From: a virus | Taxonomy: Duplodnaviria; Caudoviricetes | DNA length: 64,000 nt | Reading direction: 5' to 3' (one strand) | Virus record (IMG/VR): IMGVR_UViG_3300024344_003081 | Shown: positions 46,105 through 64,000 of the stretch, in pieces | How the letters are laid out: each line of letters begins with the position of its first letter | Position numbering within the stretch: position 1 is the stretch's first letter | Position numbers and translations under genes: made by a program | The notes under the pieces: model-generated | Told to the model about the DNA's origin: nothing | The model's input: only the letters and a program-made list of their open reading frames with translations | The model's database searches: none

Positions 46105-46445
46105 TATCGATGATACTGTAGAGTAGCATTTAAGACATCGGTGCGATTCCGATCAGCTCCACCAAAGGAACATCAATGAGTAGTGCAGATATGGCCATAT
46201 TAGTAGTATTAATTGTAATTGGCATAATTATGACGGGAACTTATTTTTATTTTGGTGGGTGATTCTTTGGAGGGGCTGTAATAGAATTCGATTGGATGTG
46301 ATTATACAGAGGAGATCATCTTGACAGATGTAAAATGTCATTTAAATTAATCGCAAATAATAACGATTATTATTCAGCACAAGTGGCATTAGCCGCTTAA
46401 TCGCTGGCGGGCTTATGATTGTGCCTTGGAACAGAAACAATCAGA
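46105..46445 (+). ncRNA. ssrA: Circularly permuted (two-piece) tmRNA: acceptor piece ~46105-46164, coding piece 46272-~46445, tag ANNNDYYSAQVALAA at 46353-46400
   Basis: T-arm ATCGG-TGCGATT-CCGAT and CAGCTCC-A-CCA (to 46164) lie upstream of GGGGCTG (46272); acceptor stem has the G3:U70 alanine pair; tag ends LAA*; outer boundaries approximate. Confidence 0.9.
46176..46262 (+). CDS. 28-aa single-TM peptide inside the tmRNA intervening segment
   Basis: AAGGAA RBS; MSSADMAILVVLIVIGIIMTGTYFYFGG*. Confidence 0.55.
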   Translation: MSSADMAILVVLIVIGIIMTGTYFYFGG

Positions 46446-49148: not shown

Positions 49149-49604
49149 ATGCTGACAATATTAGGAAGTGTATTGGGATTTGCTACTTCTACTGTACCCA
49201 CCATAATGGACTTCTTTAAAGATAAAGAAGAGAAGAAAGCAAAACAAGAAGAATTTAAACTACAGATAGAAGCAAAAAAAGCAGGTGTAGATTTAGACAT
49301 TAAACTGTTTCAAGCAAAAAAAGATTTTGATGAACAGAAAATGCTTCTTGAACATGATACTGCATTAGGTCAACAAGGGGGTTTTATAAACTCGTTAAGA
49401 GCATTTGTAAGACCTTTTATAACGTATGTGTTTGTGTTGACATTTATAGGTATTAAAATAGTACTTGTATGGCAAGCAATACAAATGGATGCAGATTTAA
49501 ATCAAACTATTAATATAGTATGGGATGATGAAACTGAGGCTCTATTTGCCGCTATTATAAGTTTTTGGTTTGGTTCCCGTGCAATGCCAGTTAGAAAAAA
49601 GTGA
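49149..49604 (+). CDS. Holin-like membrane protein (3TM holin-like)
   Basis: LRAFVRPFITY...AIISFWFGSR pattern. Confidence 0.65.
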   Translation: MLTILGSVLGFATSTVPTIMDFFKDKEEKKAKQEEFKLQIEAKKAGVDLDIKLFQAKKDFDEQKMLLEHDTALGQQGGFINSLRAFVRPFITYVFVLTFIGIKIVLVWQAIQMDADLNQTINIVWDDETEALFAAIISFWFGSRAMPVRKK

Positions 49605-49682
49605 TATCTCCGTTATCTAAATAATTGGATAACTTAAAAAAAGGAGAAAGTATGAACTTATTTCGGAGAATAATCGGATCTT

Positions 49683-49985
49683 TTGATCTTTCTGGAGAGA
49701 GTATTAGCCTGTGAGGAAAAGACTTCACAGGCCAAACACGTTAAAAGAATAATTAAAAATGAAGATTCAACGTTAATTGTTTATTATAAACTAGAAAACC
49801 CATCGATTCAAATGGACCAATTAAATTTTCATACAATGAGTTTAGAAGATTTAGAACATTTAAAAGAATATCTTTTAGATTCAAGAAATACAGAAGAAGC
49901 ATATTCTGAAAGAGCGGATATTAATCAAAGAATTCTTCTTATTGATAAAGAGATTCATAACAAAAAACAACAATTAAATGGTTAA
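49683..49985 (+). CDS. Hypothetical protein, possibly 5'-frameshifted (RBS-ATG at 49652 is in another frame)
   Basis: TTG start without its own RBS. Confidence 0.45.
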   Translation: MIFLERVLACEEKTSQAKHVKRIIKNEDSTLIVYYKLENPSIQMDQLNFHTMSLEDLEHLKEYLLDSRNTEEAYSERADINQRILLIDKEIHNKKQQLNG

Positions 49986-49987
49986 TT

Positions 49988-50233
49988 ATGTCAAAAAGTG
50001 TAGTGAGAATTAGTGTAAAAAATAAAAATAATAATAACTTTAGAACTTTGCAAATTTTTAAAAATAAAGTTAATGATGAGGGAATTATACAAGATTTAAA
50101 AAAGAAAGAATATTATGTAAAGCCCTCAATGCGTAAAAGATTAAAAAGAGAAAACGCAGAAAAACAGAGAACAAAAGATTTAAATAAAGACATTAAAAAT
50201 GCTTTAAAAAGTCAAAATGATCTGTTCTCTTAA
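49988..50233 (+). CDS. rpsU: Ribosomal protein bS21 homolog
   Basis: LQIFKNKVNDEGIIQDLKKKEYYVKPSMRKRLKR matches the bS21 signature (R/K)xxYxKPS. Confidence 0.8.
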   Translation: MSKSVVRISVKNKNNNNFRTLQIFKNKVNDEGIIQDLKKKEYYVKPSMRKRLKRENAEKQRTKDLNKDIKNALKSQNDLFS

Positions 50234-50235
50234 TA

Positions 50236-50243
50236 TATAAATA
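50236..50243 (+). promoter_or_regulatory. T4-type late promoter TATAAATA
   Basis: Exact consensus, intergenic; followed by hairpin TGTTGGG-AACC-CCTAACA. Confidence 0.6.
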
Positions 50244-50305
50244 TTCGTGTAATGTTGGGAACCCCTAACAAAAAGAAAGAAAAATGAATATCGAAAGAGT
50301 TAAAC

Positions 50306-50614
50306 ATGCCAGTACAAACCATGCAAAGTATAGCAGAGCATCAATTATTCAAGGCGACTTTGCCCCTTCTCTTTGTATTCGTGGTAGGCAGTATAACATG
50401 GATATTTGTTACAGTCATGGATATAGACAAAGTAATACATAAAATTGAAGATTCGGAAATACCACAAATTAATAAAGATATTGCACTTGGATATAAAAAA
50501 ATAGAAGAATTGGAAAAACAAATGATGGATATGAGAATTAAAATGGCAGAAATAGAAGGTTCAGTTTCTCCAGGTCATCCATCTAAATCAGGATTTCGAC
50601 CAGAAAATAGATGA
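50306..50614 (+). CDS. Hypothetical membrane-anchored coiled-coil protein
   Basis: One TM plus coiled coil. Confidence 0.55.
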   Translation: MPVQTMQSIAEHQLFKATLPLLFVFVVGSITWIFVTVMDIDKVIHKIEDSEIPQINKDIALGYKKIEELEKQMMDMRIKMAEIEGSVSPGHPSKSGFRPENR

Positions 50615-50859
50615 AAAAATTAACTATTGATACTTTAGTACCAATACATTTTGACTATCTTGCTAGAGACAAAGATGGAAAAACTTTTGTTTTTCAAAAC
50701 AAACCTGAACTAACATCTGATGTTGATTGTGATACATGGGATGTAGAAGAGGGAGAAATTTTACAAATTACTGATTCAATTTCCGTACCAGATGGAGAAA
50801 TTGATTCTCAATTAGGAAATTGGAAAGAATCGTTAATTGATTTAAGAGATTCATCATGA
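50611..50859 (+). CDS. Hypothetical protein
   Basis: LARDKDGK..VFQNKP...WKESLI. Confidence 0.55.
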   Translation: MKKLTIDTLVPIHFDYLARDKDGKTFVFQNKPELTSDVDCDTWDVEEGEILQITDSISVPDGEIDSQLGNWKESLIDLRDSS

Positions 50860-51305
50860 ACAAACTATGGTATAGTTGGGAAGAAATGCGTAACGATTGT
50901 AACGTTCTTGTAAGAGATATCGTTCTTGATAATTTCGACCCAGTAGTGATTGTTGGATTATCACGAGGAGGATTAACTCCTGGTGTGATGTTATCACATT
51001 GGTTCAAAAAACCATTTAAATCTGTGAAATCAGCTTTAAGAGACTTTCCTGAGTGGGAAGACTATTTACCAAGACCTACTGATAAGAGAGTTTTGATAGT
51101 TGATGATATCTGTGATTCTGGTGAAACCTTTCATAGGATGAAAGAACATATTATTAAAAAAGCCAATGGAGTAGATGTTCGATTTGCTACTCTTTGGTGG
51201 AATAATGAATGTAATTTTGAACCGAAATATTATGTCAGAGAAATTGCTAAAGATTCCACGAATACCTGGATTAATTTTCCTTGGGAAAAATGGTGGGATG
51301 CTTAA
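50856..51305 (+). CDS. Type I phosphoribosyltransferase (Gpt/Hpt-like)
   Basis: VGLSRGG; PRPP loop VLIVDDICDSGET; WINFPWE. Confidence 0.88.
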   Translation: MNKLWYSWEEMRNDCNVLVRDIVLDNFDPVVIVGLSRGGLTPGVMLSHWFKKPFKSVKSALRDFPEWEDYLPRPTDKRVLIVDDICDSGETFHRMKEHIIKKANGVDVRFATLWWNNECNFEPKYYVREIAKDSTNTWINFPWEKWWDA

Positions 51306-51396
51306 TCTGATATAATTCAATCTATTCTAACGAATCACCATGGAAGGATTTGAAGTATTATTGTTAGAATATTAACAATCTTTAAGGAGAATATAA

Positions 51397-51615
51397 ATGG
51401 TAGAAAAAATTCTCGGTTGGGTTAAATCTCTCACCGAAATTGGTCTAGCTTTTATAGCACTCGGAGTAGTGCTTCAGATCCTATTCGGAGCCGCAGTTCC
51501 ATTTCTTGGTTTGGACGTAATTGGTTCTGTATTAGCGGTCGTTAAGGAACTAGGAAGCGAAGGACTCGTTGGTCTAGTTGCTATATGGGTACTTTGGGGA
51601 ATATACTCAAAGTAA
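51397..51615 (+). CDS. Small multi-TM membrane protein
   Basis: Strong RBS; almost entirely hydrophobic. Confidence 0.65.
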   Translation: MVEKILGWVKSLTEIGLAFIALGVVLQILFGAAVPFLGLDVIGSVLAVVKELGSEGLVGLVAIWVLWGIYSK

Positions 51616-51625
51616 GTTAATAAAT

Positions 51626-51657
51626 AGCGGTAGATTGGAAGATTTACCGCTTTTTTT
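51626..51657 (+). terminator. Intrinsic terminator-like hairpin
   Basis: AGCGGTA/TACCGCT stem plus T tract; preceded by AATAAATA. Confidence 0.7.
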
Positions 51658-51677
51658 GTTTTCTCGGAAGGAGAAAA

Positions 51678-52763
51678 ATGAATAAGTTAAAAATCCTTGC
51701 TGTACTCATTTTGAGTATAGCATTAATTGGTATTGCTAACGCAAAAAAGCAAGTATCAGTTGGTTATGTTCTAGTGGGACCAAAAAATGATGGCGGATGG
51801 TCAATGCGACATCATCAAGGATTTCAATCCTTAACAAAACATGGGTATGAAGTCTCAATGGTAGAAATGGTACCAGAGTCAGAATCCCAAAAAGTATTCC
51901 GTAAACTCGCAAGAAAACACGATATTGTCTTTGCAACTTCATTCGGTTATATGGATGGAATGGTGAAAGCCGCAAAGAAAAATCCTGATACAATTTTCAT
52001 GCATGCCACGGGTTACAAAGGTAACGATACAAATATGGACAACTACGTTTGTCATTCATTCCAAGCACGATATCTTACAGGAATTGCGGCTGGAATGTTG
52101 TCAAAAACAAATAAGATTGGTGTAGTTGGTTCACATCCGATACCTGAAATTATTCGTAATATTAATGCTCTAACTATTGGAGCCCAAACAGTAAATCCAG
52201 ACATTGAAGTTAATATTGTATGGATTAACTCATGGTTCGATCCACCTAAAGATATGGATGCGGCTAAAGCACTTCTTGATGATGGAAATGATATTCTCTT
52301 TACAACAACAGATTCACCTAGTGTAGTAACTCTTGCACAACAAGCGTGGAAAACTGATGGTAAAGAAGTATGGAGTATGGGAAATGATGCGCCTATGGGA
52401 AGTAACGGACCAGATCGATACATCACGGGTATGATGTTCAACTGGAATGTTCTTTACAAACATATAGTAGATCAACTTGCACATGGAAAACTCAAAATGA
52501 ATCAAAGGTGGAATTGGGGTTTGAAAGAAAATTGTGTAGGACTATCACCATGGGGAGCAAATGTTCCTGGCTCTGTTGTTAATAAAGTTGAAACAGTTAA
52601 AATGAACTGGATTAATGATGATTTGGATGAATGGTATCCATTCTCTCAAGGAATTACGAAACAGGATGGTTCAACAATTCCCGCTGGTACTCTTAAAAGA
52701 CCAGAATTAGAAACAATGCAATACTTTGTAAAAGGTGTTGTTAATAAATTCCCTACTAATTAA
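51678..52763 (+). CDS. BMP-family (purine nucleoside-type) substrate-binding protein
   Basis: Signal peptide; VGPKNDGGWS..H, ATSFGY, MHATGY, SWFDP, TTDSP. Confidence 0.88.
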   Translation: MNKLKILAVLILSIALIGIANAKKQVSVGYVLVGPKNDGGWSMRHHQGFQSLTKHGYEVSMVEMVPESESQKVFRKLARKHDIVFATSFGYMDGMVKAAKKNPDTIFMHATGYKGNDTNMDNYVCHSFQARYLTGIAAGMLSKTNKIGVVGSHPIPEIIRNINALTIGAQTVNPDIEVNIVWINSWFDPPKDMDAAKALLDDGNDILFTTTDSPSVVTLAQQAWKTDGKEVWSMGNDAPMGSNGPDRYITGMMFNWNVLYKHIVDQLAHGKLKMNQRWNWGLKENCVGLSPWGANVPGSVVNKVETVKMNWINDDLDEWYPFSQGITKQDGSTIPAGTLKRPELETMQYFVKGVVNKFPTN

Positions 52764-52776
52764 TGGAGAGTAAAAA

Positions 52777-53718
52777 ATGAAAAATATTTTAGCAATTATT
52801 GTAGCATTCTTTATGATGATGAGTGTTACTTATGCCAAAGAAAAAGTGACCCTGTTAATGGATTGGTTTCCACAGGGCAATCAAAGTGGATTCTGGCAGG
52901 CTCAATTTGATAATGCACATAATCCAGACCTTGAAATTACAATTAAATCGGGCGGACCAAAAGTTAGAACTACTACTGCAGTAGCATCTGGTCAAGTAGA
53001 ATTTGGTCTTAATGGATCAGATAGTGTAATGATGGCTAATGCAAAAGGTGCAGGACTTAAAGCTATTTTCGTTAGTCTTGGTCATGTTCCATACACGTTA
53101 GTTTATCATCCAAATACTGGTGTAAATAGTGTTCAAGATTTAGATGGTAGACCCTTTGCAGTTGTGATGGGTATTACATATTGGAAATGGGTAAAACATA
53201 CTTATAATTTAAATAAAGTAAAAGAATTTCCATTGACTGGTGATCTTGGATTGTTTGCAAGAACTCCACAACAATTTCAACAAGGATATTCTCTTTTCTT
53301 ACCAGCAAGACTGGATGCTAAGGGAGTTGATAATGAGCAAATTACAGTTGAGTCTTTGGGTTATAGACCATATAGTGTTTTGTTCACAAGCGATAAGTTG
53401 ATCAAAGAAAATCGTGCATTAGTGCAGAAAGTTGTTGATCGTCTTAGTATTTCTTTTCACAAGTCTTTAGTTGATCCAAAACCAACTAGAGATTTTATTC
53501 TTTCAAAGAGTAAAAAAGTAAATGCTGAAATTCATAACAATGCTCTTGAACTTATGAAGGCAGATTTTCTTCCCGATGATTGGAGCAAGATTGGATGTCA
53601 AGATCCTCAACGATGGGTTGAATTAGCAAGTCAATTGAAAGAAGTTAACGTATTACCTGCGGATTTCGATCCACATTCGTCATATGATACTTCATTTAAA
53701 AAGGGATGTTTTAATTAA
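52777..53718 (+). CDS. NMT1/THI5/SsuA-like ABC substrate-binding protein
   Basis: Signal peptide; LLMDWFPQGNQSG, GGP, VEFG. Confidence 0.8.
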   Translation: MKNILAIIVAFFMMMSVTYAKEKVTLLMDWFPQGNQSGFWQAQFDNAHNPDLEITIKSGGPKVRTTTAVASGQVEFGLNGSDSVMMANAKGAGLKAIFVSLGHVPYTLVYHPNTGVNSVQDLDGRPFAVVMGITYWKWVKHTYNLNKVKEFPLTGDLGLFARTPQQFQQGYSLFLPARLDAKGVDNEQITVESLGYRPYSVLFTSDKLIKENRALVQKVVDRLSISFHKSLVDPKPTRDFILSKSKKVNAEIHNNALELMKADFLPDDWSKIGCQDPQRWVELASQLKEVNVLPADFDPHSSYDTSFKKGCFN

Positions 53719-53731
53719 TTGAGAGTTTATT

Positions 53732-54436
53732 ATGATTGACATTTCAGGTGTTACTAAACATTTTGATGATGTCCATGCATTAGCAGAAATAAATTTAGAC
53801 ATTAGCACAGGAGAGTTTGTTTCTATAGTTGGACCCTCTGGTTGCGGAAAGTCTACCTTATTAAGAATTATTGCGGGTTTAGTTTCTACTCATGGAAGAG
53901 TATTAAAACCTGATAAAGGTGCTTTTGTGTTCCAAGATTCTGCATTACTTCCATGGAGGAATGTGCAGAAAAACATAGAACTTTTAATGGAATTAGAACT
54001 TATCCCTAAAGCAGAACGAGTCGAAAAGGCTCGTTCTGCCCTCTCTCAAGTCGGACTAACTGGATTTGAAAAAAATTATCCTCATCAATTATCTGGTGGC
54101 ATGAAAATGAGATTGTCTCTAGCAAGATCATTAGTATTAAACCCTGATTATCTTCTTATGGATGAACCATTATCTGCGGTAGATGAATTAACCCGTGAAG
54201 TTTTACAAGAAGAGATATATGCATTATGGAAAAAAGATAAATTTACTGCTATACTTGTGACACATAATGTTCCAGAAGCAGTTTATCTTTCTAATAGAGT
54301 AGTTATTATGTCTCCAAGACCTGGAAGTATTACACATATTGTTGATGTTCCTTTTAAGAACAGAAATCAAAAATTGAGATCATCAAATAAATATCATAAA
54401 CTTATTAATAATATTTCTGGAAAATTAAGATCATGA
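53732..54436 (+). CDS. ABC transporter ATP-binding subunit (TauB/SsuB-like)
   Basis: GPSGCGKST, VFQ, LSGGMKMR, LLMDEPLSAVD, VTH. Confidence 0.95.
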   Translation: MIDISGVTKHFDDVHALAEINLDISTGEFVSIVGPSGCGKSTLLRIIAGLVSTHGRVLKPDKGAFVFQDSALLPWRNVQKNIELLMELELIPKAERVEKARSALSQVGLTGFEKNYPHQLSGGMKMRLSLARSLVLNPDYLLMDEPLSAVDELTREVLQEEIYALWKKDKFTAILVTHNVPEAVYLSNRVVIMSPRPGSITHIVDVPFKNRNQKLRSSNKYHKLINNISGKLRS

Positions 54437-55194
54437 AAAATATAATTCCACCAATTCTAGTCTTAATAATATTTCTATTTGTGTGGACACTAGCGGCCCA
54501 TCTTTATAATATGTCTTTTCTTTTACCAAATCCCCTAGAAGTTTTACAAGCATTTATAACAGATTTTGATATGGTTATCGGTGGACTTTGGATTACTTTT
54601 CAAGAAGCATTATATGGTTATCTTTTAGCAATCGGTATTGGTATTACTTCTGCGGCAATTATGAGTCAATCAAAAATATTAGAACGCAGTTTCTATCCCT
54701 ATGCAATATTATTACAAACACTTCCTGCAGTTGCAGTAGCTCCATTGATTGTTCTTTGGTTTGGATTTGAAATGAGATCAGTTGTTATTATAAGTTTAAT
54801 TATTTCATTATTTCCAATCATTAATAATACTTTGTTAGGATTAAAATCAACATCTATTAGTTTAGTTGAACTTTTTCAAATGCATAATCAATCACGTTTT
54901 GTTAATTTTTTCAAACTTCGTTTACCAGCCGCTACTCCTAATGTTATTGCAGGATTGAGAATATCAGCAGGATTATCTGTTATCGGTGCAATCGTAGGAG
55001 AGTTTATTATTGGCTCTGGAAGTGAAGGTGGCGGATTAGGTGTAATGATAATGTATGCACAAGCAGATTTAGCAACTGCATTAGTAATAGCACTTATTTT
55101 TACTGCTACTGGTTTGGGGTTTGCTTTCTTTATGACAGTATCAACATTGGGACACTATCTTTTACATAACTGGCACGAATCAGAGTTAGCATGA
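54433..55194 (+). CDS. ABC transporter permease (TauC/SsuC-like)
   Basis: About 6 TM; EAA-like loop KLRLPAATPNVIAGLR; GAIVGEF. Confidence 0.92.
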   Translation: MKNIIPPILVLIIFLFVWTLAAHLYNMSFLLPNPLEVLQAFITDFDMVIGGLWITFQEALYGYLLAIGIGITSAAIMSQSKILERSFYPYAILLQTLPAVAVAPLIVLWFGFEMRSVVIISLIISLFPIINNTLLGLKSTSISLVELFQMHNQSRFVNFFKLRLPAATPNVIAGLRISAGLSVIGAIVGEFIIGSGSEGGGLGVMIMYAQADLATALVIALIFTATGLGFAFFMTVSTLGHYLLHNWHESELA

Positions 55195-56246
55195 AATCAA
55201 CAATAGAACGCAGAAAAACGGGATTAATTTATTGGGATATGGATTGGTCTTCTGGATGTTATACTTTGTATGCACCACAAACTGGTAATGGTTTAGTAAA
55301 ATTAATTGCTATTGATGGCGATACTGTTCACGAATGGAAACTTCCAGTAAGACCCGGTCGAGATGCAGTAATACTAGATTATGTACAAGGTCGTAAATCT
55401 GGAAATCTTGGTTACAATGGTAGTCATGCAAAGTCAGCAAATCTTTATCCATCATGGGATATTTGGCATGGTGGACATTTCATGGAAGTTGCACCAAACG
55501 GAGATATTGTATGGGAACATGAAGATATCTATCATCACCATGATGCTCAATGGTTGCCAAATGGAAATTTAATCTATACAGTTGCGGCTGAATGGAATGG
55601 TAAACAATCAGATATTGTAAAAGAAGTAAATCCAAAAGGTGAAGTAGTTTGGGAATGGAGAGCATGGGAACATCTTACTAGAAAAGAGTGGTCTATACAT
55701 GAATGTTTTAATGATGATCATTGGCCAATGATTAATGGTGTTTATCAAGATGGGTTTCTACTTTATTTGAGTTTACGAACAACATCGGGTATTATTGCAG
55801 TAAATAAAAATACAAAAGAAGTAATTTGGGAATTGAAGTATCCTTTTGTAGCACAACAGCATGATCCATCAATAACAGAACAGGGAAATTTATTGTGTTT
55901 TGATAATGGAAATATTCGTCCTAGTTCAATTCATCATTCTCGTATTGTAGAGTATGATACAGTATCAAAAGAACTTGTATGGGAATATAAAGACCCGATG
56001 CCTTCTGCATTTTTTTCTCCGTATATGGGAAGTGTTCAAAAACTTTGGAATGGAAGTTATTCTATTTGTGAAAGTGCATTTGGAAGAATATTCGAAGTAA
56101 CTTCAGAAGGCGAATTAATGTGGGAATATGTTATACCAGAATTCGCAGAATACCCCTCACCACTAAATAACTATATAACAGGATCACATAATAGTTGTTT
56201 TAAAGCACATCGTTACGAATCAAATACGATAACGAATATTCTCTAG
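55191..56246 (+). CDS. Aryl-sulfate sulfotransferase (ASST)-like beta-propeller protein
   Basis: HHHDAQWLPNGN, QQHDP, FDNG, SRIVEYD, GRIFEV; repeated W-E-W/Y blades. Confidence 0.75.
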   Translation: MKSTIERRKTGLIYWDMDWSSGCYTLYAPQTGNGLVKLIAIDGDTVHEWKLPVRPGRDAVILDYVQGRKSGNLGYNGSHAKSANLYPSWDIWHGGHFMEVAPNGDIVWEHEDIYHHHDAQWLPNGNLIYTVAAEWNGKQSDIVKEVNPKGEVVWEWRAWEHLTRKEWSIHECFNDDHWPMINGVYQDGFLLYLSLRTTSGIIAVNKNTKEVIWELKYPFVAQQHDPSITEQGNLLCFDNGNIRPSSIHHSRIVEYDTVSKELVWEYKDPMPSAFFSPYMGSVQKLWNGSYSICESAFGRIFEVTSEGELMWEYVIPEFAEYPSPLNNYITGSHNSCFKAHRYESNTITNIL

Positions 56247-56261
56247 GAGGGTGAATAAAAA

Positions 56262-57539
56262 ATGATCGGATTCAAAAAGAATCGATGGGACAATATAACA
56301 CGTCCTTATACAGAAGAAGATGTAGACCGGTTAGGGGGGTCTCTCAAAATAGAATATACTCTAGCAAAAACAGGAGCAGATAAATTATGGAACAGACTAC
56401 ATTCTAAAAATCGAAATTATGTAAATGCATTAGGAGCATTAACAGGAAATCAAGCATTGCAACAAGCAAAAGCAGGATTAAAATCTGTTTATCTCAGTGG
56501 TTGGCAAGTAGCAGGAGATGCAAATGATAGTTTAGAAATGTATCCAGATCAATCACTATATGCAACAAGTAGTGTACCCACAGTAATTAAAAAAATCAAT
56601 AATACATTTATTCGTGCAGATCAAATTCAAACAATGGAAGGAACAGGAGATATAGATTATTTTCTTCCTATTGTTGCTGATATGGAATCGGGATTTGGTG
56701 GAGTACTTAATACACATGAATTAATGAAAGACATGATTGAAGCAGGTGCCGCAGGTGTACATTTAGAAGATCAATTATCTTCTGCTAAAAAATGTGGACA
56801 TATGGGAGGAAAAGTTTTAGTACCTACTCGGGAAATGATTTCTAAACTTATTTCAGCAAGATTTGCGGCAGACATAATGGGCGTTGATACAGTAATAATT
56901 GCAAGAACAGATTCATTAGCAGGAGCATTATTGTCTTCTGATTCTGATCCTTATGATCATAAATTTATTGAAAAAAAACAGTGGAACCACATGCTTCCAC
57001 CGAAAGAAGATAGAACTGAAGAAGGTCTTTTTAGAGTAAAAGCAGGAATGGAACAAGCAGTTTCTAGAGGACTTGCATATGCACCATATTGTGATTTAAT
57101 TTGGATGGAAACATCTTTACCAGACCTGGGAGAATGTAAAGAATTTATACAAGAGATTCGTAAAGAGTTTCCTGAAAAAATGTTTGCATATAATTGTTCT
57201 CCATCATTTAATTGGAAAGCAAAATTAAATGATACAGAAATACGTGATTTTCAAGATAATTTGGGTGAATTGGGATGTAAATATCAGTTTATAACTCTTG
57301 CTGGTTTTCATAGTTTAAATTATAGTATGTTTGATTTAGCAAGAAAATATAAAAAAACAGGAATGACTGGATTTGTAGACTTACAACAAAAAGAATTTGA
57401 AGCACAGGATAAGGGTTTTACTGCAGTAAAGCATCAACGTGAAGTTGGGGCGGGTTATTTTGATGCAGTTGGGCAAATTTGTACAAATAGCAATACTTTG
57501 AGTGCAGTTGAAGGATCAACTGAACAAGAGCAATTTTAG
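56262..57539 (+). CDS. aceA: Isocitrate lyase
   Basis: [65 protein letters not shown]. Confidence 0.95.
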
Positions 57540-57549
57540 AAGGAGTAAA

Positions 57550-58632
57550 ATGAAAAGTGGAGATGTGGCAACAGGTGTAGATGTATCAAAAGAAACAAGT
57601 GTTGGAAATGAAGATGTTGGCGCAAGTGCAGAAGCCCATGCAGAAGCAGGTGTAGAAGTAACCGATTCTAGTGTAAGTGCAGAAGCAGAAGTTGGCGCAA
57701 GTGCAGAAGCACATGCAGGTACTACAGTAGGTGGAGTTGATTTAGAAGCAGAGGCATCAGTAGAAGCAGAAGCACATGCAACGGCAGGTGCAGAAATTAC
57801 AGATACAGATGTGAGTGCAGGAGCAGAAGTTGGTGCAAGTGTAGAAGCCAGTGTGGAAGCAAGTGCAGGATCAGATACTACAATAGGTGATACAGGTATT
57901 GATGTAGGAGCAGAAACTTCAGTAGGAGCAACTGCAGAAGCACATGTAGGAGCAGAAGCAGAAGCAACTGCTGGACTTCATGGAGTAGAAGGACATGCAG
58001 GAGCAGAAGTTGGTGCAAGTGTTGGTGTAGAATCAGAATCATCTGTTCAAGTTGGTGCGGCAGAAGCAACTGGAAGTGCAGGAGTAAGTATTGGAGTGCA
58101 AGCTGGTGCAGAAGTCGGTGGAGGCGCAACTTTTGATGAGGGAACGATTAGTATGGGAGTTGATGGACATATTGCGTTACTTGCTGGTGTGGATCTTGAT
58201 TTAGAAGTAGATATTGATACTAAAGAAGCATTGAGAGAAGCAAAAGATGCGGCCCAAGAAGCACAAAAACTGGCGGATGAAGCAAAAAAAGCGGCTTTAG
58301 CACATGATAAAGAAGTTGCTGAAGCAAAAAGATTAGCAGAAGAACATGCTAAAGAAGTAGCAAAAGCCGCTCAAGAGAAAATTCTGAAAGATAAAGAATA
58401 CGCCGAAGAGAAGGCACGAAAAGCAAAAGCAGAAGCAGAAGAAAAAGCTAGACAAGCGGCGGAAAAAGCTAGACAAGCAAAAGAGGCCGCAGAAAGAGCG
58501 GCCGCAAAGAAAGCTGAAGAAGCTAAAAAAGCCGCGGAGAATACGGCTAAAAAGGCGAAAAAGACAACAAAGAAAACAACAAAAAAAATAACAAAAGCAT
58601 TTAGTACGAAAAAGAAAAAGAAGAAAAAATGA
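57550..58632 (+). CDS. Bipartite repeat protein: acidic (G/A)xE(A/V) beta-repeat domain plus Ala/Lys/Glu helical tail with basic end
   Basis: AGGAG RBS before ATG 57550; repeats ASAEAHAEAG/AGAEVGASV; KKTTKK...KKKKKK end. Confidence 0.65.
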   Translation: MKSGDVATGVDVSKETSVGNEDVGASAEAHAEAGVEVTDSSVSAEAEVGASAEAHAGTTVGGVDLEAEASVEAEAHATAGAEITDTDVSAGAEVGASVEASVEASAGSDTTIGDTGIDVGAETSVGATAEAHVGAEAEATAGLHGVEGHAGAEVGASVGVESESSVQVGAAEATGSAGVSIGVQAGAEVGGGATFDEGTISMGVDGHIALLAGVDLDLEVDIDTKEALREAKDAAQEAQKLADEAKKAALAHDKEVAEAKRLAEEHAKEVAKAAQEKILKDKEYAEEKARKAKAEAEEKARQAAEKARQAKEAAERAAAKKAEEAKKAAENTAKKAKKTTKKTTKKITKAFSTKKKKKKK

Positions 58633-58635
58633 AGA

Positions 58636-58989
58636 ATGCAAGATTTAAATATTAGATGTATTATACATAAATCTTCATTGATTGAATATTTTTATAAACA
58701 TACACTTGTTATTCAAGATGAAGAACATATAGATCCATTAATAGAATTTCAAGATGATTCTTGGTTACTTTATTCTTCAAAGGTCCCTAAACATAAAACG
58801 AGTTTGATTCCTCCAACTCTTCCTTTGAAAGCTATAAGACCTGTAGTAGATTCTTTGACTTTATATTATATTAAAAATTCATTAGTGATGCCTTGTTTTG
58901 ATTTATTAAAAACTACTATGGAAATTGATTTTGGTATAGTAGAAGAAAGTAAAGAAATTGTTATCACTAATATAAAAACTAAATACTAA
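58636..58989 (+). CDS. Hypothetical protein
   Basis: ORF. Confidence 0.5.
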   Translation: MQDLNIRCIIHKSSLIEYFYKHTLVIQDEEHIDPLIEFQDDSWLLYSSKVPKHKTSLIPPTLPLKAIRPVVDSLTLYYIKNSLVMPCFDLLKTTMEIDFGIVEESKEIVITNIKTKY

Positions 58990-58990
58990 T

Positions 58991-59896
58991 ATGAGAACAT
59001 TTAAAGGATATCTAACAGAACGCTTTCAAGAGTGGAAAAAACCCAATAAGCCCGCATGGACAGAAGGTCTGTCTACCATGTTATTTGATTTACGTAACTC
59101 GGGCATAAACGATTTACCAATTCCCCTATCTCCCTCTATTTTTTCAAGACTTTGGCCAAAACCCACCCGTTCAAGAGTATTTCATGTAACTGATTATATG
59201 GGAGTCGAAAATTTAGCAAGATTGCAAGGAAGAAAGAAATCAATTTCTGCATTTTATAATATTGCAAGATGGACTATTGAAGATGGTATCAGAACAGATG
59301 GGGGTTATGTTGTTGAATTAGATGCAGATGTTCTCGTTGCGGCACCAGATGATATTTCAAGTATGCCCGATAAGGGGGGAACAAGATGGATTACTTGGAA
59401 TACAATTTTTTCTCAAATGGGACAGAAAAAATATCTTAAAAGAATGGAAGATGATCTGAATGAATTCTTGATAGAACTTATTATGCAATATGCAGATGAT
59501 CCAAAATTTATGCCAGATGTTAAGAAATCTTGGATTGCTCTTGGTAAAGAATATAAGAATGAAAAAAGAATATTGTATGATATTATCAAAGATTATTTTG
59601 ATGGTATAGAGCAAGTTATACGAAAACATGGAAAAGAGTTACACTTTGTCTTTACTAATTATGTTGGAGATAGGCATATGAGGCCAGATCCAGATAGTGG
59701 AGACTATGAAGAATGGGATGAATTAGTAGTTAATAATATTAAGATTATAAAGATTCATGTAGGACCAGAATTTGCACCAGATTTTGAAGAAGATGATGAT
59801 ATAGATGGATTTCCATTTAAGGGTTGGGATGATACTGGTGATTTAACAAAGTATATTGCACAAAAAGTAAAAAAGGATCTTAAAAAAAGAAAATGA
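58991..59896 (+). CDS. Hypothetical protein
   Basis: MRTFKGYLTE N-terminus resembles other late/internal proteins of T4-like phages. Confidence 0.6.
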   Translation: MRTFKGYLTERFQEWKKPNKPAWTEGLSTMLFDLRNSGINDLPIPLSPSIFSRLWPKPTRSRVFHVTDYMGVENLARLQGRKKSISAFYNIARWTIEDGIRTDGGYVVELDADVLVAAPDDISSMPDKGGTRWITWNTIFSQMGQKKYLKRMEDDLNEFLIELIMQYADDPKFMPDVKKSWIALGKEYKNEKRILYDIIKDYFDGIEQVIRKHGKELHFVFTNYVGDRHMRPDPDSGDYEEWDELVVNNIKIIKIHVGPEFAPDFEEDDDIDGFPFKGWDDTGDLTKYIAQKVKKDLKKRK

Positions 59897-59903
59897 AAAT
59901 ATA

Positions 59904-60416
59904 ATGATAATAGATTTTAATAAAAGTATTAGTGAACAATGGAAAGATCAAACTACAACAACATCACATACAGCCGCTACGGCTGATGAAAAAGTTTTAG
60001 CAACATCAACTTTTAATACAGAAATACCATCAACAGTAATTGACATTTATAATTTTCCTAGAAAATCAAAGTCTATTGTTGCAACAAGTAAAAACAAAGA
60101 AAAGTTAATTGAATTATTTGATCTCATTGAATCAAAAAATGAAACGACATTGAAATTTAATGAGTCAGAAGATTTATTTGTTTCTGAAGAATTTAAACAT
60201 TTTAAAGAAGTTCAATTTGATATTTTTCCTCTAACAATGGATGTGAATAAGCTATTTACAGATTTTAAACAACTGTTACAGTTAAAAAATATGACTATTA
60301 TTTGTAAATTTAGTCCAGAAATAGCTTGCCATGAAGTGCTAGATATGTTAAAATATGTGTTAGTATTAAAAAATAAGAATTATCCTGGAATTGTAATAAT
60401 TAAAGATGAGATATGA
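59904..60416 (+). CDS. Hypothetical protein
   Basis: ORF coupled to guaC. Confidence 0.5.
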   Translation: MIIDFNKSISEQWKDQTTTTSHTAATADEKVLATSTFNTEIPSTVIDIYNFPRKSKSIVATSKNKEKLIELFDLIESKNETTLKFNESEDLFVSEEFKHFKEVQFDIFPLTMDVNKLFTDFKQLLQLKNMTIICKFSPEIACHEVLDMLKYVLVLKNKNYPGIVIIKDEI

Positions 60417-61396
60417 GAATACAAGATGATATAAAACTTGATTTTGATGATGTTTTAATCAAGCCTAAAAGATCCACCCTAGTTTCACGTAAAAAAGCAA
60501 ATCTAGAAAGAACATTTAAGTTCAAACATTCACACCATCGATGGACAGGAATTCCTATAATTGCATCCAATATGGATCATACGGGAACTATTGCTATGGC
60601 TCATGTTCTTATGGAATTTCCCATGCTTACAGCATTGTGTAAATTTGTTGAGTCTACAGAATGGGGATGGAATAAAAATATAATAAGAACAATCGGTCTA
60701 GATCAAAATTTAGATGAATTAACTGATGATTCAATGTGGATTTGTCTTGATGTAGCAAATGGATATACAGAACGTTTTAATGATTATGTTGCATTAATGA
60801 GAAGACATGCCGCAACTAAAGATAGAATAATTATAGCAGGAAATGTATGTACACCAGAAGCAACAGAACAAATACTTTTAGCAGGAGCCGATATCGTAAA
60901 AATAGGAATAGGTCCTGGATCGGTGTGTACAACTCGCAAAATGACAGGCGTTGGATATCCACAATTAAGTGCTACAATGGAATGTGGAGATGCGGCCCAT
61001 GGTCTAGGAGGACACATAATTACAGACGGAGGATGCACAGTTGTAGGAGATATTGCAAAAAGTTTTGGAGGTGGTGCAGATTTTGTAATGCTTGGTGGTA
61101 TGTTAGCAGGGCACAAAGAATGCGAAGGAGAAATAGAAGATGACAAAATGATATTTTATGGAATGTCTTCAACTGAAGCACAAATAAAACATCATGGTGG
61201 AAAAAAATCTCATAGAGCATCAGAAGGAAAAGCAGTTATGATAGATTACAGAGGTAATGTAGCAGATACAGTACAAGAAATCTTAGGAGGATTACGAAGT
61301 TCATGTACATATGCTGGTGCAAAATCAATTAAAGACTTGCCCAAATGTACTACATTTGTTAAGGTTAATCGACAGTTAAATACGGTATTTAATTGA
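60413..61396 (+). CDS. guaC: GMP reductase
   Basis: DIKLDFDDVLI.PKRSTL.SR, DVANGY, GIGPGSVCTTR, FYGMSS, RASEGK; no CBS domains. Confidence 0.93.
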   Translation: MRIQDDIKLDFDDVLIKPKRSTLVSRKKANLERTFKFKHSHHRWTGIPIIASNMDHTGTIAMAHVLMEFPMLTALCKFVESTEWGWNKNIIRTIGLDQNLDELTDDSMWICLDVANGYTERFNDYVALMRRHAATKDRIIIAGNVCTPEATEQILLAGADIVKIGIGPGSVCTTRKMTGVGYPQLSATMECGDAAHGLGGHIITDGGCTVVGDIAKSFGGGADFVMLGGMLAGHKECEGEIEDDKMIFYGMSSTEAQIKHHGGKKSHRASEGKAVMIDYRGNVADTVQEILGGLRSSCTYAGAKSIKDLPKCTTFVKVNRQLNTVFN

Positions 61397-61434
61397 ACTC
61401 TAATCATATCTTAACAATATTCTAACAATAGAAA

Positions 61435-61442
61435 TATAAATA
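61435..61442 (+). promoter_or_regulatory. T4-type late promoter TATAAATA
   Basis: Exact consensus, intergenic. Confidence 0.55.
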
Positions 61443-61510
61443 TTTTGGATGGATATGCAAAAGGAACACAGAACACTTTACGATAAATGGAAATATAAAA
61501 AAGGAGATAT

Positions 61511-62476
61511 GTGGATTTAGTAACATTGTATACTATAGTTGGATTTTCTCTAGCGAGTTATTCAGTTATAGCTAATGATTCAGTCCAGACCCTTGGTACA
61601 TGGATGGCATCAAATCAAGCACGGTTCAAGTGGTATTACATGTGGGCCGCCGCTAGTTTTGTTTTGCTATTCACAATTTGGTATGGTTGGTCTATCAACG
61701 CAGGTGATATATCGTATGGCAGATTAAACAAAATCCCATACATCCCCATAGAATGGTATCATGCCATAGCACCACTCATTCTTGTAGCCCTCACAAGATT
61801 CGGTGTTCCCGTCAGCACAACATTTTTAGTTCTATCTGCATTTGCTAGTACAGTAGTTCTAGAAAAGGTTCTTACCAAATCAGCATTAGGATATATTGTT
61901 GCCGCTTCGGCCGCTTATCTCATATGGTTGCTTGTTGCAAGGTTTTGGGAGTCAAAGAAAGATATTCCAGAGTCGCATGACAAGTATTGGAGAGTGGCAC
62001 AATGGTGTACAACAGGTTGGTTATGGTTCACTTGGTTGTCGCATGACATGGCAAACATAGCAGTATATCTACCTAGACAAGTTCCTGTTAATGTAATGAT
62101 TATCATTAGCATTATATTTGTCGCAGGTCTAGGTTATATGTTCCATGAGAAAGGTGGTAGAATACAAGAAGTTGTATTGAGTAAGACAAACACAAAATAT
62201 GTCAGGTCTGCAACATTAGTTGACTTGATTTATAGTTTGATATTGTGGTACTTCAAAGGATATAATGATATTCCAATGAGTACAACTTGGGTGTTTGTTG
62301 GTTTGCTTGCAGGTAGAGAACTTGCATTTGCAACGATAACTGGTGAGCATACATTTAAAACTGTTTTTCCATTGATAGGAAAAGATTTCTTCAAGATGAT
62401 TATAGGTCTTTCTTTGTCAGTTGTCATTGTACTATTAATTCATGGATTTGCATTCGATGGTTTGAAAACCAATTGA
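61511..62476 (+). CDS. Multi-TM transporter related to the PiT (inorganic phosphate transporter) family
   Basis: Duplicated PiT-like signatures: IANDSVQ / GVPVSTT and SHDMAN / DIPMSTT; GTG start. Confidence 0.6.
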   Translation: MDLVTLYTIVGFSLASYSVIANDSVQTLGTWMASNQARFKWYYMWAAASFVLLFTIWYGWSINAGDISYGRLNKIPYIPIEWYHAIAPLILVALTRFGVPVSTTFLVLSAFASTVVLEKVLTKSALGYIVAASAAYLIWLLVARFWESKKDIPESHDKYWRVAQWCTTGWLWFTWLSHDMANIAVYLPRQVPVNVMIIISIIFVAGLGYMFHEKGGRIQEVVLSKTNTKYVRSATLVDLIYSLILWYFKGYNDIPMSTTWVFVGLLAGRELAFATITGEHTFKTVFPLIGKDFFKMIIGLSLSVVIVLLIHGFAFDGLKTN

Positions 62477-62523
62477 TTAAAAATAATCGGAGTGCTTTGG
62501 CACTCCACTTCCCATTTTTTATT

Positions 62524-63117
62524 ATGATAATACAAAAAGATAATAATGATCCAAATGGGTATGCATTTGAGGATGCTTTAGCAAAAGCACAATACATGTA
62601 TCCAAAACCCAGAAATCCTCACATACATACAATTTTACAACATGCTCAACAGATTTATGATGGTGAATTAATTGAACGATCTATTTGTAAACAACTTCCC
62701 GATTTTAAACCCATCAATATGATAAATTGTAAGAAGTATTTTGAGGAAATGAAGCCATGGGAATTCTTATTGAAGACTAAAGAAAGAAAAATATCAAAAG
62801 AAATGATGAGAAAAAATAATGGTGCATGGGAAACATATTATGAAGAAAAAAATGTTACAGAATGGGAATACATGTACTATGATATATTTCATGTTCCAAC
62901 TCTTTCTATTATAGAGTGTAAAACATATGATTCAGACGAAGGAAGAAGGGGACATTTACAACATATACGTGAAAATGATTGGAAATATAAGAATATGGAT
63001 TATTTCTTATTTGCATTGAATAAAGACGAAAAATCTTTCGAAATTACTGATTTTTTAAGTTTAAACGGTTCAAATCAATTCAAAACTCATAATATTGATG
63101 AATTTATAGAGTTATAA
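62524..63117 (+). CDS. Hypothetical protein (C-terminal D..ExK nuclease-like motif)
   Basis: YYDIFHVPTLSIIECKTY; function speculative. Confidence 0.5.
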   Translation: MIIQKDNNDPNGYAFEDALAKAQYMYPKPRNPHIHTILQHAQQIYDGELIERSICKQLPDFKPINMINCKKYFEEMKPWEFLLKTKERKISKEMMRKNNGAWETYYEEKNVTEWEYMYYDIFHVPTLSIIECKTYDSDEGRRGHLQHIRENDWKYKNMDYFLFALNKDEKSFEITDFLSLNGSNQFKTHNIDEFIEL

Positions 63118-63120
63118 ATA
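63113..63120 (+). promoter_or_regulatory. T4-type late promoter TATAAATA
   Basis: Exact consensus upstream of 63168. Confidence 0.6.
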
Positions 63121-63167
63121 TTGATAAGAATAAATATATTACTATTAAAACCCTACAAGGAGAATTA

Positions 63168-63407
63168 ATGGATTATACCTCAAGTGATCTTTTAGATAAA
63201 ATTGCAAGTGGAGAACACATTAAAGGAAAAGATGTTTTTAATGCATTGATGAATGATAGAGTGTTATCCGAACTTGGTGCTAAAAAAGTTGAAATAGCTA
63301 GAAGTTTATTACCCTCATCTGAAATTCCTCACTCGGAGATTGTTTTTGATAAAGCAAAAGACATCTCTCAAGAAGATGCCAAAGATGAGCAAGAAACCGC
63401 ACAATAA
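63168..63407 (+). CDS. Small acidic late protein, prohead-core (gp67-like) candidate
   Basis: DLLDKIASGE..KGKDVFNALMNDRV...KKVEIA pattern; late promoter upstream. Confidence 0.45.
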   Translation: MDYTSSDLLDKIASGEHIKGKDVFNALMNDRVLSELGAKKVEIARSLLPSSEIPHSEIVFDKAKDISQEDAKDEQETAQ

Positions 63408-63666
63408 AAAACAAAAAATAGATATCGTAACTGTTGAAGAGCCTAAAGAAAATATTAGGATTTTTGGTGATATAGGATTTTTACCAGACTTTTTTTATGA
63501 AGATGGTGATGTCAAAATTCCTAGAGAAGATGTAATTTATCTCTTTGATGATGACTGTGATGAGGATGTTACTGAATTTGTAAACCAACAATGGTCGGAA
63601 TTAGAAAAAGATGAGAACTTTTCAAAAGTTTGCATTGAACGAAGGATTAATCCAGATACCCCCTAA
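63385..63666 (+). CDS. Hypothetical protein
   Basis: ORF; start uncertain. Confidence 0.45.
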   Translation: MSKKPHNKKQKIDIVTVEEPKENIRIFGDIGFLPDFFYEDGDVKIPREDVIYLFDDDCDEDVTEFVNQQWSELEKDENFSKVCIERRINPDTP

Positions 63667-63715
63667 AATTTATAAGCATTTTGAAACTGCTTTATTTACA
63701 TTTGCTTTTTCACAT

Positions 63716-64000
63716 ATGATAAATGAAGTGGGAGATTATGGGTTTTCTAAAACAATTAAAAAAATAGCGGGAAAATATGGAATAAGGCGTTTTATTAAAC
63801 CCGCCGCGGAGACAAATGTAGTATATAGAAATCCCCATCAAGATATGCCGTATCAAGATTGGGATGTAGATCAAAATGATAATATTACATTATTCATGGT
63901 TTATGATGAAAAAGATGCTAGTTATAATTCCTATTACGATAGTGAACATGAAAAAACGGGCAACCCTGCGATTACGTTTTATGCTTCTAATTATGTAAAA
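63716..64000 (+). CDS. Hypothetical protein truncated by the window end
   Basis: ATG 63716, open for 95 codons to base 64000. Confidence 0.5.
   Translation, partial: MINEVGDYGFSKTIKKIAGKYGIRRFIKPAAETNVVYRNPHQDMPYQDWDVDQNDNITLFMVYDEKDASYNSYYDSEHEKTGNPAITFYASNYVK

Follow-up and report, generated by a model that had tools for sequence, protein, structure and literature searches.

A conserved phage-borne cassette of two binding proteins, an ABC importer and an ASST-like enzyme, with a proposed role in nucleobase scavenging by large marine T4-like phages

The DNA analysed here is a window of 64,000 nt from IMG/VR record IMGVR_UViG_3300024344_003081, to whose positions all coordinates refer. It carries a block of genes for a purine phosphoribosyltransferase (PRTase; gene, PRT), two periplasmic binding proteins, the ATPase and permease of an ABC importer, and an enzyme resembling arylsulfate sulfotransferase (ASST), and it is this block, hereafter the cassette, which is described below. 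Every long open reading frame (ORF) in the window lies on the + strand and the G+C content is ca. 31%. Searches of PHROGs revealed a T4-type DNA polymerase, gp46/SbcC, a DnaB-like helicase, ribonucleotide reductase (RNR) and cobS; the best isolate matches of the polymerase are those of cyanomyophages, at approximately 52% identity. The window is part of the genome of a large marine T4-like phage.

The cassette opens with a small type I purine PRTase of 149 amino acids (50856-51305; Pfam Pribosyltran, 66 bits), followed by orf72 (51397-51615), a conserved ORF which specifies a hydrophobic membrane peptide of 72 amino acids and about two helices. Between orf72 and the next gene lies a terminator-like consensus match (51626-51661) composed of a hairpin (51626-51651) with a stem of 11 pairs and a loop of 4 nt, then TTTTTTTGTTT, and this is a putative terminator. 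There follow a BMP-family binding protein (51678-52763; Pfam Bmp, 160 bits), an NMT1/ThiY-like binding protein (52777-53718; Pfam NMT1, 64 bits), an ABC ATPase of the NitT/TauT type (53732-54436; Pfam ABC_tran, 98 bits), an ABC permease which presumably functions as a homodimer (54433-55194; Pfam BPD_transp_1, 85 bits), and a 351-amino acid protein (55191-56246; Pfam Arylsulfotrans, PF05935, 80 bits, and Arylsulfotran_2, PF14269, 49 bits), predicted to be a cytoplasmic six-bladed beta-propeller of the ASST/Cpz4 kind. The final gene of this tightly packed run specifies isocitrate lyase (AceA, ICL; 56262-57539; NCBIfam PRK15063, 674 bits against a cut-off of 562) and starts 15 nt 3' of the ASST-like gene. 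Farther downstream, and like all of the above on the + strand, is a gene for GMP reductase (GuaC; 60413-61396; NCBIfam PRK05096, 464 bits against a cut-off of 397). An earlier note, made from the letters of this DNA, had named the PRTase, both binding proteins, the ATPase, the permease, the ASST-like protein and the GMP reductase, and the Pfam and NCBIfam searches place each of them where it had said; orf72, the hairpin and ICL were absent from its list. The ATGA overlaps which it described can be read directly at 54433-54436 (ATPase/permease) and 55191-55194 (permease/ASST-like). The remaining junctions measure 13-15 nt, each with a GGAG-type ribosome-binding site. The orf72 product had no match in Pfam, NCBIfam or PHROGs; it is kept at 82-100% between PRT and BMP in four relatives (L001, L064, L065 and L068), and two others (L072 and L075) have a 75-amino acid ORF in its place.

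The order PRT-(orf72)-BMP-NMT1-ATPase-permease-ASST is found, whole or mostly so, in 10 other IMG/VR contigs (57-89% amino acid identity) and in three ENA phage contigs, which range in length from 7 to 252 kb. ThyX and RNR are encoded by one of these three, PhoH and ribosomal protein S21 by the other two. In all, at least 13 other phage contigs have the block, the amino acid identities ranging overall from 57 to 99%, and we regard so recurrent a gene arrangement as being far beyond chance. The PRT gene adjoins the transporter genes in 12 of the 13 related phage loci. Genes for purC, purM, prsA, pyrF and GMP reductase lie beside the block in the relatives, and in L063 the GMP reductase gene directly abuts PRT-NMT1-ATPase-permease-ASST. 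Comparison with the relatives gave ratios of nonsynonymous to synonymous substitution (dN/dS) of 0.04-0.31 for all seven genes, that is, purifying selection. The G+C content at third codon positions (GC3) is 0.15-0.25 in the cassette genes and 0.12-0.20 in the phage core genes. The sequence GCWGC does not occur in the cassette (3.7 sites expected) or anywhere else in the 64-kb window (26 expected), as against 24-31 sites in chromosomal loci of SAR324 bacteria; the SAR324 BMP genes have 3-4 sites and the phage BMP copy none. The earlier note had proposed that a host-derived misassembly would betray itself by loss of this avoidance; it is intact in both cassette and window, which favours authenticity. 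In one DNA sequencing run all 30 depth bins across the stretch were covered. Because the block recurs in other phage contigs, is under purifying selection, has a phage-like GC3 and lacks GCWGC, it is not the product of misassembly and is a genuinely phage-borne, conserved auxiliary metabolic cassette.

A metagenome-assembled genome (MAG) labelled Chloroflexota (NAT137, PAAV01) includes a copy of the phage with 97% identity, which amounts to ca. 190 kb in contigs C1 (161 kb) and C40 (28 kb). These phage contigs have 27-32% G+C and no GCWGC; the other contigs sampled from this MAG have 42% G+C and 30-49 sites. Judging from composition, the phage DNA in NAT137 is a binning artefact. Such a contaminant could mislead inferences on hosts or metabolism, and users of public MAGs should take it as a warning.

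Two further observations concern the relatives. Several phage contigs related to this one, 17-21 kb in length, likewise have no GCWGC, and its absence suggests strong avoidance of a GCWGC-specific restriction enzyme. The cassettes of L072/L073 and L075 are enlarged, an ammonium transporter (Amt) gene separating orf72 from BMP, and a gene for a DIOX_N/2OG-Fe(II) oxygenase separating the permease gene from the ASST-like gene; the same phages carry genes for SAICAR synthase, AIR synthase, PRPP synthetase, OMP decarboxylase, a class II tRNA-synthetase-like protein and another binding protein (SBP_bac_3).

The BMP-family protein possesses a Sec signal peptide and no lipobox cysteine. Over residues 22-359 it aligns with PDB entry 3S99, in which adenine was modelled (E 5e-63), and with the guanine-containing structure of AtzT (6PI5; E 6e-59). 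AtzT binds guanine with a dissociation constant of 110 nM and adenine with one of 2.5 uM, and does not bind GTP or pyrimidines (PMC6834077). In the alignment the pocket residues Ser97/Phe98, Glu165, Asn169 and Trp194 of AtzT are kept in the phage protein, Tyr45 is replaced by Trp, Asn218 by Thr, and Asn220 by Asp as in 3S99. Since the match to AtzT and 3S99 is full-length and most of the pocket residues are retained, the ligand is likely to be a free purine base rather than a nucleoside. The earlier note had relied on BMP proteins as binders of purine nucleosides; the phage copy falls instead in the AtzT/3S99 purine-base subgroup.

BMP proteins work with permeases of the BPD_transp_2 family and a tandem ATPase. 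The cassette has none of these, and no BPD_transp_2 permease was found among the ORFs Pfam-scanned at 49149-64000. As the phage permease belongs to BPD_transp_1, the BMP protein appears to be an orphan which must use a host transporter, and the single importer with two binding proteins envisaged in the earlier note gives way to two systems. In SAR324 chromosomes the BMP homologs of 81-86% identity directly follow two BPD_transp_2 permease genes. At three SAR324 loci (L079, L080 and L082) the BMP transporter genes lie between multihaem cytochrome c genes and a gene for a DIOX_N/2OG-Fe(II) oxygenase; this oxygenase is of the same type as that inside some of the phage cassettes and may be part of a purine module. 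The best solved relatives of the phage PRTase are archaeal purine PRTases (1VDM, E 6e-13; 4TRB/4Z1O, GpT-1/2). Together the PRTase, GMP reductase and BMP protein would form a coherent route for purine salvage and rebalancing.

The NMT1 protein likewise has a signal peptide and no lipobox cysteine. Its AlphaFold2 (AF2) model (mean pLDDT confidence score 81) is closest to 4NMY, which has thiamin bound, and to the formylaminopyrimidine-binding protein ThiY (3IX1), with template-modelling (TM) scores of 0.77-0.80 and E 1e-18. The next matches are the hydroxymethylpyrimidine (HMP) synthase Thi5 and then SsuA/TauA (TM 0.66-0.69, E 1e-13). The family is narrow: a search of 1.84 billion cluster representatives gave no more than 23 at E<1e-30. 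Only two cellular clusters of more than 40% identity had a readable context (L023 and L107), and in both the gene lies beside one for an ASST-like protein. One relative of 31% identity is located within a hydantoinase/amidohydrolase cluster; the contexts of the more distant clusters P0254, P0256 and P0259 gave no information. The translated ATPase contains Walker A (GPSGCGKST), signature (LSGGM) and Walker B (LLMDEP) motifs and an H-loop. Its best NCBIfam matches are SaoA, TauB, SsuB and NtrCD, all of them under the equivalog cut-offs (SaoA, 215 against 360); those of the permease, SaoP, SsuC, NtrB and TauC, are also under cut-off, and the NMT1 protein scores 37.5 on SsuA_fam against a cut-off of 163.5. 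None of the three thus reached the equivalog level of an NCBIfam model whose substrate (taurine, sulfonate, nitrate or HMP) is known, and with every match so far under its cut-off, membership of the family gives no guide to the substrate. Identity with SaoA/SaoP, of the selenoprotein organometallic system of anaerobes, was rejected on the same low scores and on the lack of a Sec/Cys gate context around the phage permease. The NMT1 protein, ATPase and permease together make up a self-sufficient type I ABC importer of the NitT/TauT family (transporter classification 3.A.1.17). The complete importer of the earlier note therefore stands for the NMT1 system and falls for the BMP protein, which would serve another transporter; the note's alternative of sulfonate uptake is weakened, the model being nearer to the thiamin/pyrimidine branch than to SsuA/TauA.

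The ASST-like protein has no signal peptide. Foldseek comparison of its AF2 model (pLDDT 90) gave Cpz4 (9KF4/9KF6; E 4e-16) as the closest solved structure, followed by E. coli ASST (E 5e-12); a protein search of the Atlas returned merely generic aryl sulfotransferase names. For the active site a profile of 20 homologs was aligned to 3ELQ, using a published list of residues (PMC13426309). The nucleophile His436 of ASST corresponds to H224 of the phage enzyme, within a Q223-H224 pair that is invariant in the 20 homologs. The sulfate-coordinating residues His252, Asn358 and Arg374 correspond to H117, N182 and R196, all of them invariant, and Thr501 aligns to a hydrophobic loop residue. His356 is retained in a soil clade and replaced by Met or Leu in the clade of phage, enteric and Rhodobacterales proteins. 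The ASST-like gene is also a hotspot of divergence from L004, with 89% amino acid identity and a dN/dS of 0.31 between phages which are otherwise 98-100% identical; this hints at recombination, or at relaxed or diversifying selection on that one gene.

Relatives of the enzyme are found in Klebsiella, Pantoea, Enterobacter and the Rhodobacterales. Among cellular loci of more than 45% identity with a visible downstream flank, the ASST-like gene stands beside a transporter in 23 of 23, and in the 13 related phage loci it is near one, either directly or with one gene between. The transporter itself varies. At 15 loci from the Enterobacterales and Paraburkholderia it is a nucleobase permease of the NCS2 family, encoded next after the ASST-like gene; this permease scores best on the pbuX xanthine-permease model and has the signature motif ENIGVVRTTN. 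An NMT1-type ABC system takes its place at five Rhodobacterales/Stappiaceae loci, in one member of the Rhodocyclaceae, in one SAR324-order genome and in a metagenome contig (L107) which, being short, shows the NMT1-type binding protein and ATPase. A LacI-family repressor gene accompanies 20 of the 23 cellular loci, and homologous repressors are encoded upstream, in divergent orientation, at 14 of the 15 NCS2 loci (13 of them enterobacterial) and at all five from the Rhodobacterales/Stappiaceae. Since NCS2 and ABC transporters are exchanged around a fixed enzyme and regulator, both would carry the same nucleobase-like heterocycle; the swap indicates that the substrate is a compound acceptable to an NCS2 carrier.

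For the BMP gene, the closest cellular relatives (81-86% identity) are chromosomal genes of two SAR324 single-cell genomes and one MAG. Homologs are present in 32 of 64 SAR324-order genomes, with a smooth gradient of identity from 86% down to 33%. In a maximum-likelihood tree the phage and low-G+C SAR324 copies form one clade (support 97/100) nested among other SAR324 copies, and by this placement the phage BMP gene is of SAR324 origin. Homologs of the PRTase in SAR324 genomes are 51-55% identical. The phage ASST-like proteins are monophyletic (100/100), and their sister is the chromosomal copy of a SAR324 single-cell genome (100/99). The comparison with host genomes for which the earlier note had called, made for the BMP, ASST-like and PRT genes, thus revealed a SAR324 affinity of all three. 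The most likely host of the phage clade, as judged by these genes, is a member of the SAR324 bacteria. SAR324 has, to our knowledge, no cultured phages, and the block yields a first gene-based host hypothesis for this phage lineage.

Two other hosts were considered. A Chloroflexota host is unlikely, given that NAT137 contains no cellular homolog of BMP or PRT when searched with the phage proteins, and that the signal peptides of the binding proteins are of the Gram-negative type without lipobox. SAR11 was rejected: no such transporter is mentioned in the pelagimyophage literature, and the 15 best-listed INPHARED matches of the DNA polymerase are all from cyanophages (ca. 52% identity), none from a pelagiphage.

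We favour the view, with rather better than even confidence, that the cassette is an infection-stage nucleobase scavenging module of a large marine T4-like phage clade which most likely infects SAR324. It is the best reading because the block lies among purine-nucleotide genes, with purC, purM, prsA, pyrF and GMP reductase genes beside it in the relatives. In this respect the proposal of the earlier note, a scavenging system feeding nucleotide synthesis during infection, has lasted better than the single-importer design and nucleoside ligand that went with it. Gene identities, conservation, purifying selection, phage-like composition and the SAR324 affinity of three genes are direct results of the analysis; what the two systems carry, how the BMP protein would dock with permeases of the host, which reaction the ASST-like enzyme would catalyse and which bacterium is infected we infer, and these inferences would fit together as follows. 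Both binding proteins would be exported to the periplasm during infection. In the first arm the BMP protein would capture free purine bases there and pass them to a BMP-type ABC permease of the host, whereupon the phage PRTase would turn the base into a nucleotide; GMP reductase would move G nucleotides towards IMP and then A, which would suit a genome of 31% G+C. In the second arm the importer of the phage (ThiY-like protein, ATPase dimer and permease dimer) would admit a second, N-heterocyclic and nucleobase-like compound, and the translationally coupled ASST/Cpz4-like enzyme would process it by group transfer through a covalent H224 intermediate. The PRTase and GMP reductase would then channel the products into nucleotides for phage DNA synthesis. 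Near-identical contigs from the RNA libraries of three studies span the region from PRT to the 5' end of the ATPase gene, and it is possible that they reflect expression in the sea. These contigs do not cover the permease, ASST-like and ICL genes, which is no evidence that those genes are silent.

Several points weigh against this view. With regard to the host, which is named from gene phylogeny alone, homologs of the ASST-like protein occur in just three of the 64 SAR324-order genomes and that gene may have been transferred in either direction; no phage contig and no T4-type DNA polymerase turned up in those 64 genomes, although we do not count this as evidence against a SAR324 host; and the bin in which the 97%-identical copy lies is a MAG labelled Chloroflexota. 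Some of the contigs from RNA libraries may stem from DNA carried over. As to the substrate, the NCS2 partner scores best on a xanthine-permease model yet has ENIG, which we take to be pyrimidine-type, in place of QNxG in its signature, and the compound may thus be a purine or a pyrimidine. NitT/TauT importers classically carry sulfonates and sulfate esters, and an organosulfur substrate is conceivable given that the nucleophile and three sulfate-coordinating residues of the enzyme are kept.

The last of these points can be developed into a route of its own, in which the NMT1 importer would bring in a sulfonate, or else the sulfate ester of an aromatic or enol compound, and the ASST-like enzyme would strip or transfer the sulfuryl group via sulfo-His224, freeing the organic moiety; the purine genes would then be mere neighbours. 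The conservation of His436, His252, Asn358 and Arg374 of ASST (PMC13426309) agrees with it, as do the nearest solved structures, the sulfotransferases Cpz4 and E. coli ASST, and the ATPase and permease score best on models of the NitT/TauT group, SaoA/SaoP first and then those for taurine, sulfonate and nitrate. Distant homologs of the enzyme in SAR202 (30% identity) moreover lie beside genes for a rhodanese and a luciferase-like monooxygenase. We nevertheless think this route rather improbable. The model of the binding protein is nearer to thiamin and pyrimidine binders than to SsuA/TauA, the partner in 15 genomes is an NCS2 nucleobase permease, the regulator is of the LacI and not of a sulfur-starvation type, His356 is lost in the clade that includes the phages, and the phage blocks are embedded among purine and pyrimidine genes. 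Sulfate is abundant in seawater, and the scavenging of sulfur would therefore be of little benefit.

A vitamin-precursor route, with the NMT1 system as a ThiXYZ-like importer of thiamin or of pyrimidine precursors such as HMP and FAMP for thiamin-dependent enzymes during infection, would account for the order of the structural matches, 4NMY and ThiY ahead of Thi5. The identity to these proteins is just 16-19%, however. No riboswitch, including that for thiamin pyrophosphate (TPP), was found in the window or in four cellular loci, and no thiamin salvage gene stands beside the module in the loci with annotated neighbours. The cellular versions are LacI-regulated and exchange with an NCS2 permease, and the ASST-like enzyme would be left without a role, so that we give the route, for which similarity of fold is the sole argument, little credence. 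Even less probable is biosynthetic tailoring, in which the ASST-like enzyme would sulfate the product of a type III polyketide synthase, in the way that Cpz4 works with the type III synthase Cpz6, next to a permease which is there by accident: Cpz4, which employs the product of such a synthase as its carrier of sulfate, is indeed the closest solved structure, but the conserved partner is a transporter in the 13 phage loci and all 23 cellular loci, and the cassette contains no sulfotransferase dependent on 3'-phosphoadenosine 5'-phosphosulfate (PAPS). Finally, an artefact by which host DNA was joined to a phage contig through misassembly or binning, which might be suspected from the near-identical DNA in the Chloroflexota-labelled MAG and the 81-86% identity of the BMP gene to SAR324 chromosomal genes, can be put aside as barely credible in view of the gene order shared by independent assemblies and diverged phage contigs, the phage-like GC3 and lack of GCWGC, the separate phage contigs of NAT137 with their own G+C and GCWGC content, and the cover of 30 of 30 depth bins in the DNA run.

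Returning to the nucleobase scavenging that we favour, we would go a step further only tentatively, our confidence falling short of even. The ASST-like propeller and its swappable transporter, usually repressed by LacI, may constitute an undescribed bacterial pathway which imports a nucleobase-like compound (perhaps a heterocycle that is sulfated or derivatised in some other way) and acts on it by group transfer through a covalent histidine; a SAR324-infecting T4-like phage clade would have captured it whole, importer included, to feed nucleotide synthesis. If true, this would be the first demonstration that a complete binding-protein-dependent importer serves a phage. The ASST-like family is widespread and uncharacterised, and the block also offers a natural experiment by which its substrate might be found.

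Of the other genes around the cassette, that for ICL is found in a different position in phage contig L081 (which has a T4-type terminase), where it lies directly upstream of a BMP gene. No malate synthase turned up among the ORFs Pfam-scanned at 49149-64000, and no close ICL homolog was found in five SAR324 genomes with the window ICL as query. The ORF at 57502-58632 (the true start is likely to be an ATG near 57555) encodes a low-complexity protein with acidic Ala/Glu/Gly/Val repeats, a coiled-coil tail of Lys/Ala/Glu and a poly-Lys end. In L004, the relative with 97% identity, its place is taken by a version of 90 amino acids, and the site directly after ICL is therefore a hotspot for indels. 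The 321-amino acid membrane protein encoded at 61511-62476 gives a faint PHO4/PiT-like signal (Pfam E 0.007). In the Atlas it falls in virus-rich clusters, one of which is named phosphate/sulfate permease, and it is 80% conserved beside GMP reductase in L070; it may be another phage transporter. A permuted, two-piece tmRNA gene is located at 46109-46400 (Rfam RF04321, 94 bits).

The uptake genes of phages known to us are mostly for single binding proteins (PstS) or for single-gene carriers, and the cassette is well beyond the former. None of the families in PHROGs corresponds to the BMP, NMT1, ASST-like or ICL protein. The permease has no close homolog in 50,697 INPHARED phage records, and the sole blastn match of the cassette to INPHARED, of 179 nt, is at chance level. 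The searchable literature, a body of text from which most subscription journals are missing, yielded no account of a phage with a complete importer of the binding-protein-dependent type, and in the accessible part of a review on viral transport genes ABC transporters are listed for eukaryotic viruses only. Here a phage supplies all of the parts of an energised importer and a coupled enzyme, together with a second binding protein that would hijack a host transporter. If the cassette is functional, infected cells would actively draw dissolved nucleobases from seawater, which would tie infection to the oceanic cross-feeding of purines and pyrimidines.

Among characterised systems the importer most resembles ThiXYZ, with ThiY (3IX1), and 4NMY. 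The design is the same, with one NMT1-fold binding protein, one ATPase and one permease, and the model superposes with TM scores of 0.77-0.80; the phage system differs in its low identity (16-19%), in having neither TPP riboswitch nor thiamin genes, and in being coupled to an ASST-like enzyme. That enzyme has in common with E. coli ASST (3ELQ) and with Cpz4 of caprazamycin biosynthesis (9KF4), which are independent of PAPS, the six-bladed propeller, the histidine nucleophile and the three sulfate-coordinating residues. In contrast to E. coli ASST, the phage enzyme is predicted to be cytoplasmic, its 351 amino acids (against 571) are too few for the N-terminal beta-sandwich, no dsb gene adjoins it, and His356 is replaced. 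In its location, and in lacking the beta-sandwich domain and Dsb partner genes, it is like the cytoplasmic Cpz4. It stands apart from both in that the fixed genomic partner of the phage-type enzyme is a transporter under a LacI repressor.

On the purine side, AtzT (6PI5) and the Brucella BMP protein 3S99 resemble the phage BMP protein over their full length and share with it the stacking aromatics and most of the hydrogen-bonding residues of the pocket. Compared with AtzT, the phage protein has two pocket asparagines changed (one to Thr, the other to Asp as in 3S99), lacks permease genes of its own and is phage-encoded. The logic of the purine assimilation pair of SAR11 (Braakman et al., bioRxiv 10.1101/2024.02.09.579562), in which oligotrophic marine bacteria assimilate purines from their surroundings in intact form through a transporter and a PRTase, is the same; in the text of that preprint, as far as it is accessible, the word "phage" does not occur and "virus" occurs three times, in the reference list. 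The present system differs from the SAR11 pair in being virus-encoded, in using a BMP binding protein and in having a second importer joined to it. The closest parallel within phages is PstS of cyanomyophages and pelagimyophages, a host-derived periplasmic binding protein without permease which is believed to dock on the ABC transporter of the host and to increase uptake in the course of infection (PMC12379486). The phage BMP protein fits this pattern exactly, except that its predicted ligand is a purine base and not phosphate, and that the cassette adds to it a whole second importer and a cytoplasmic enzyme.

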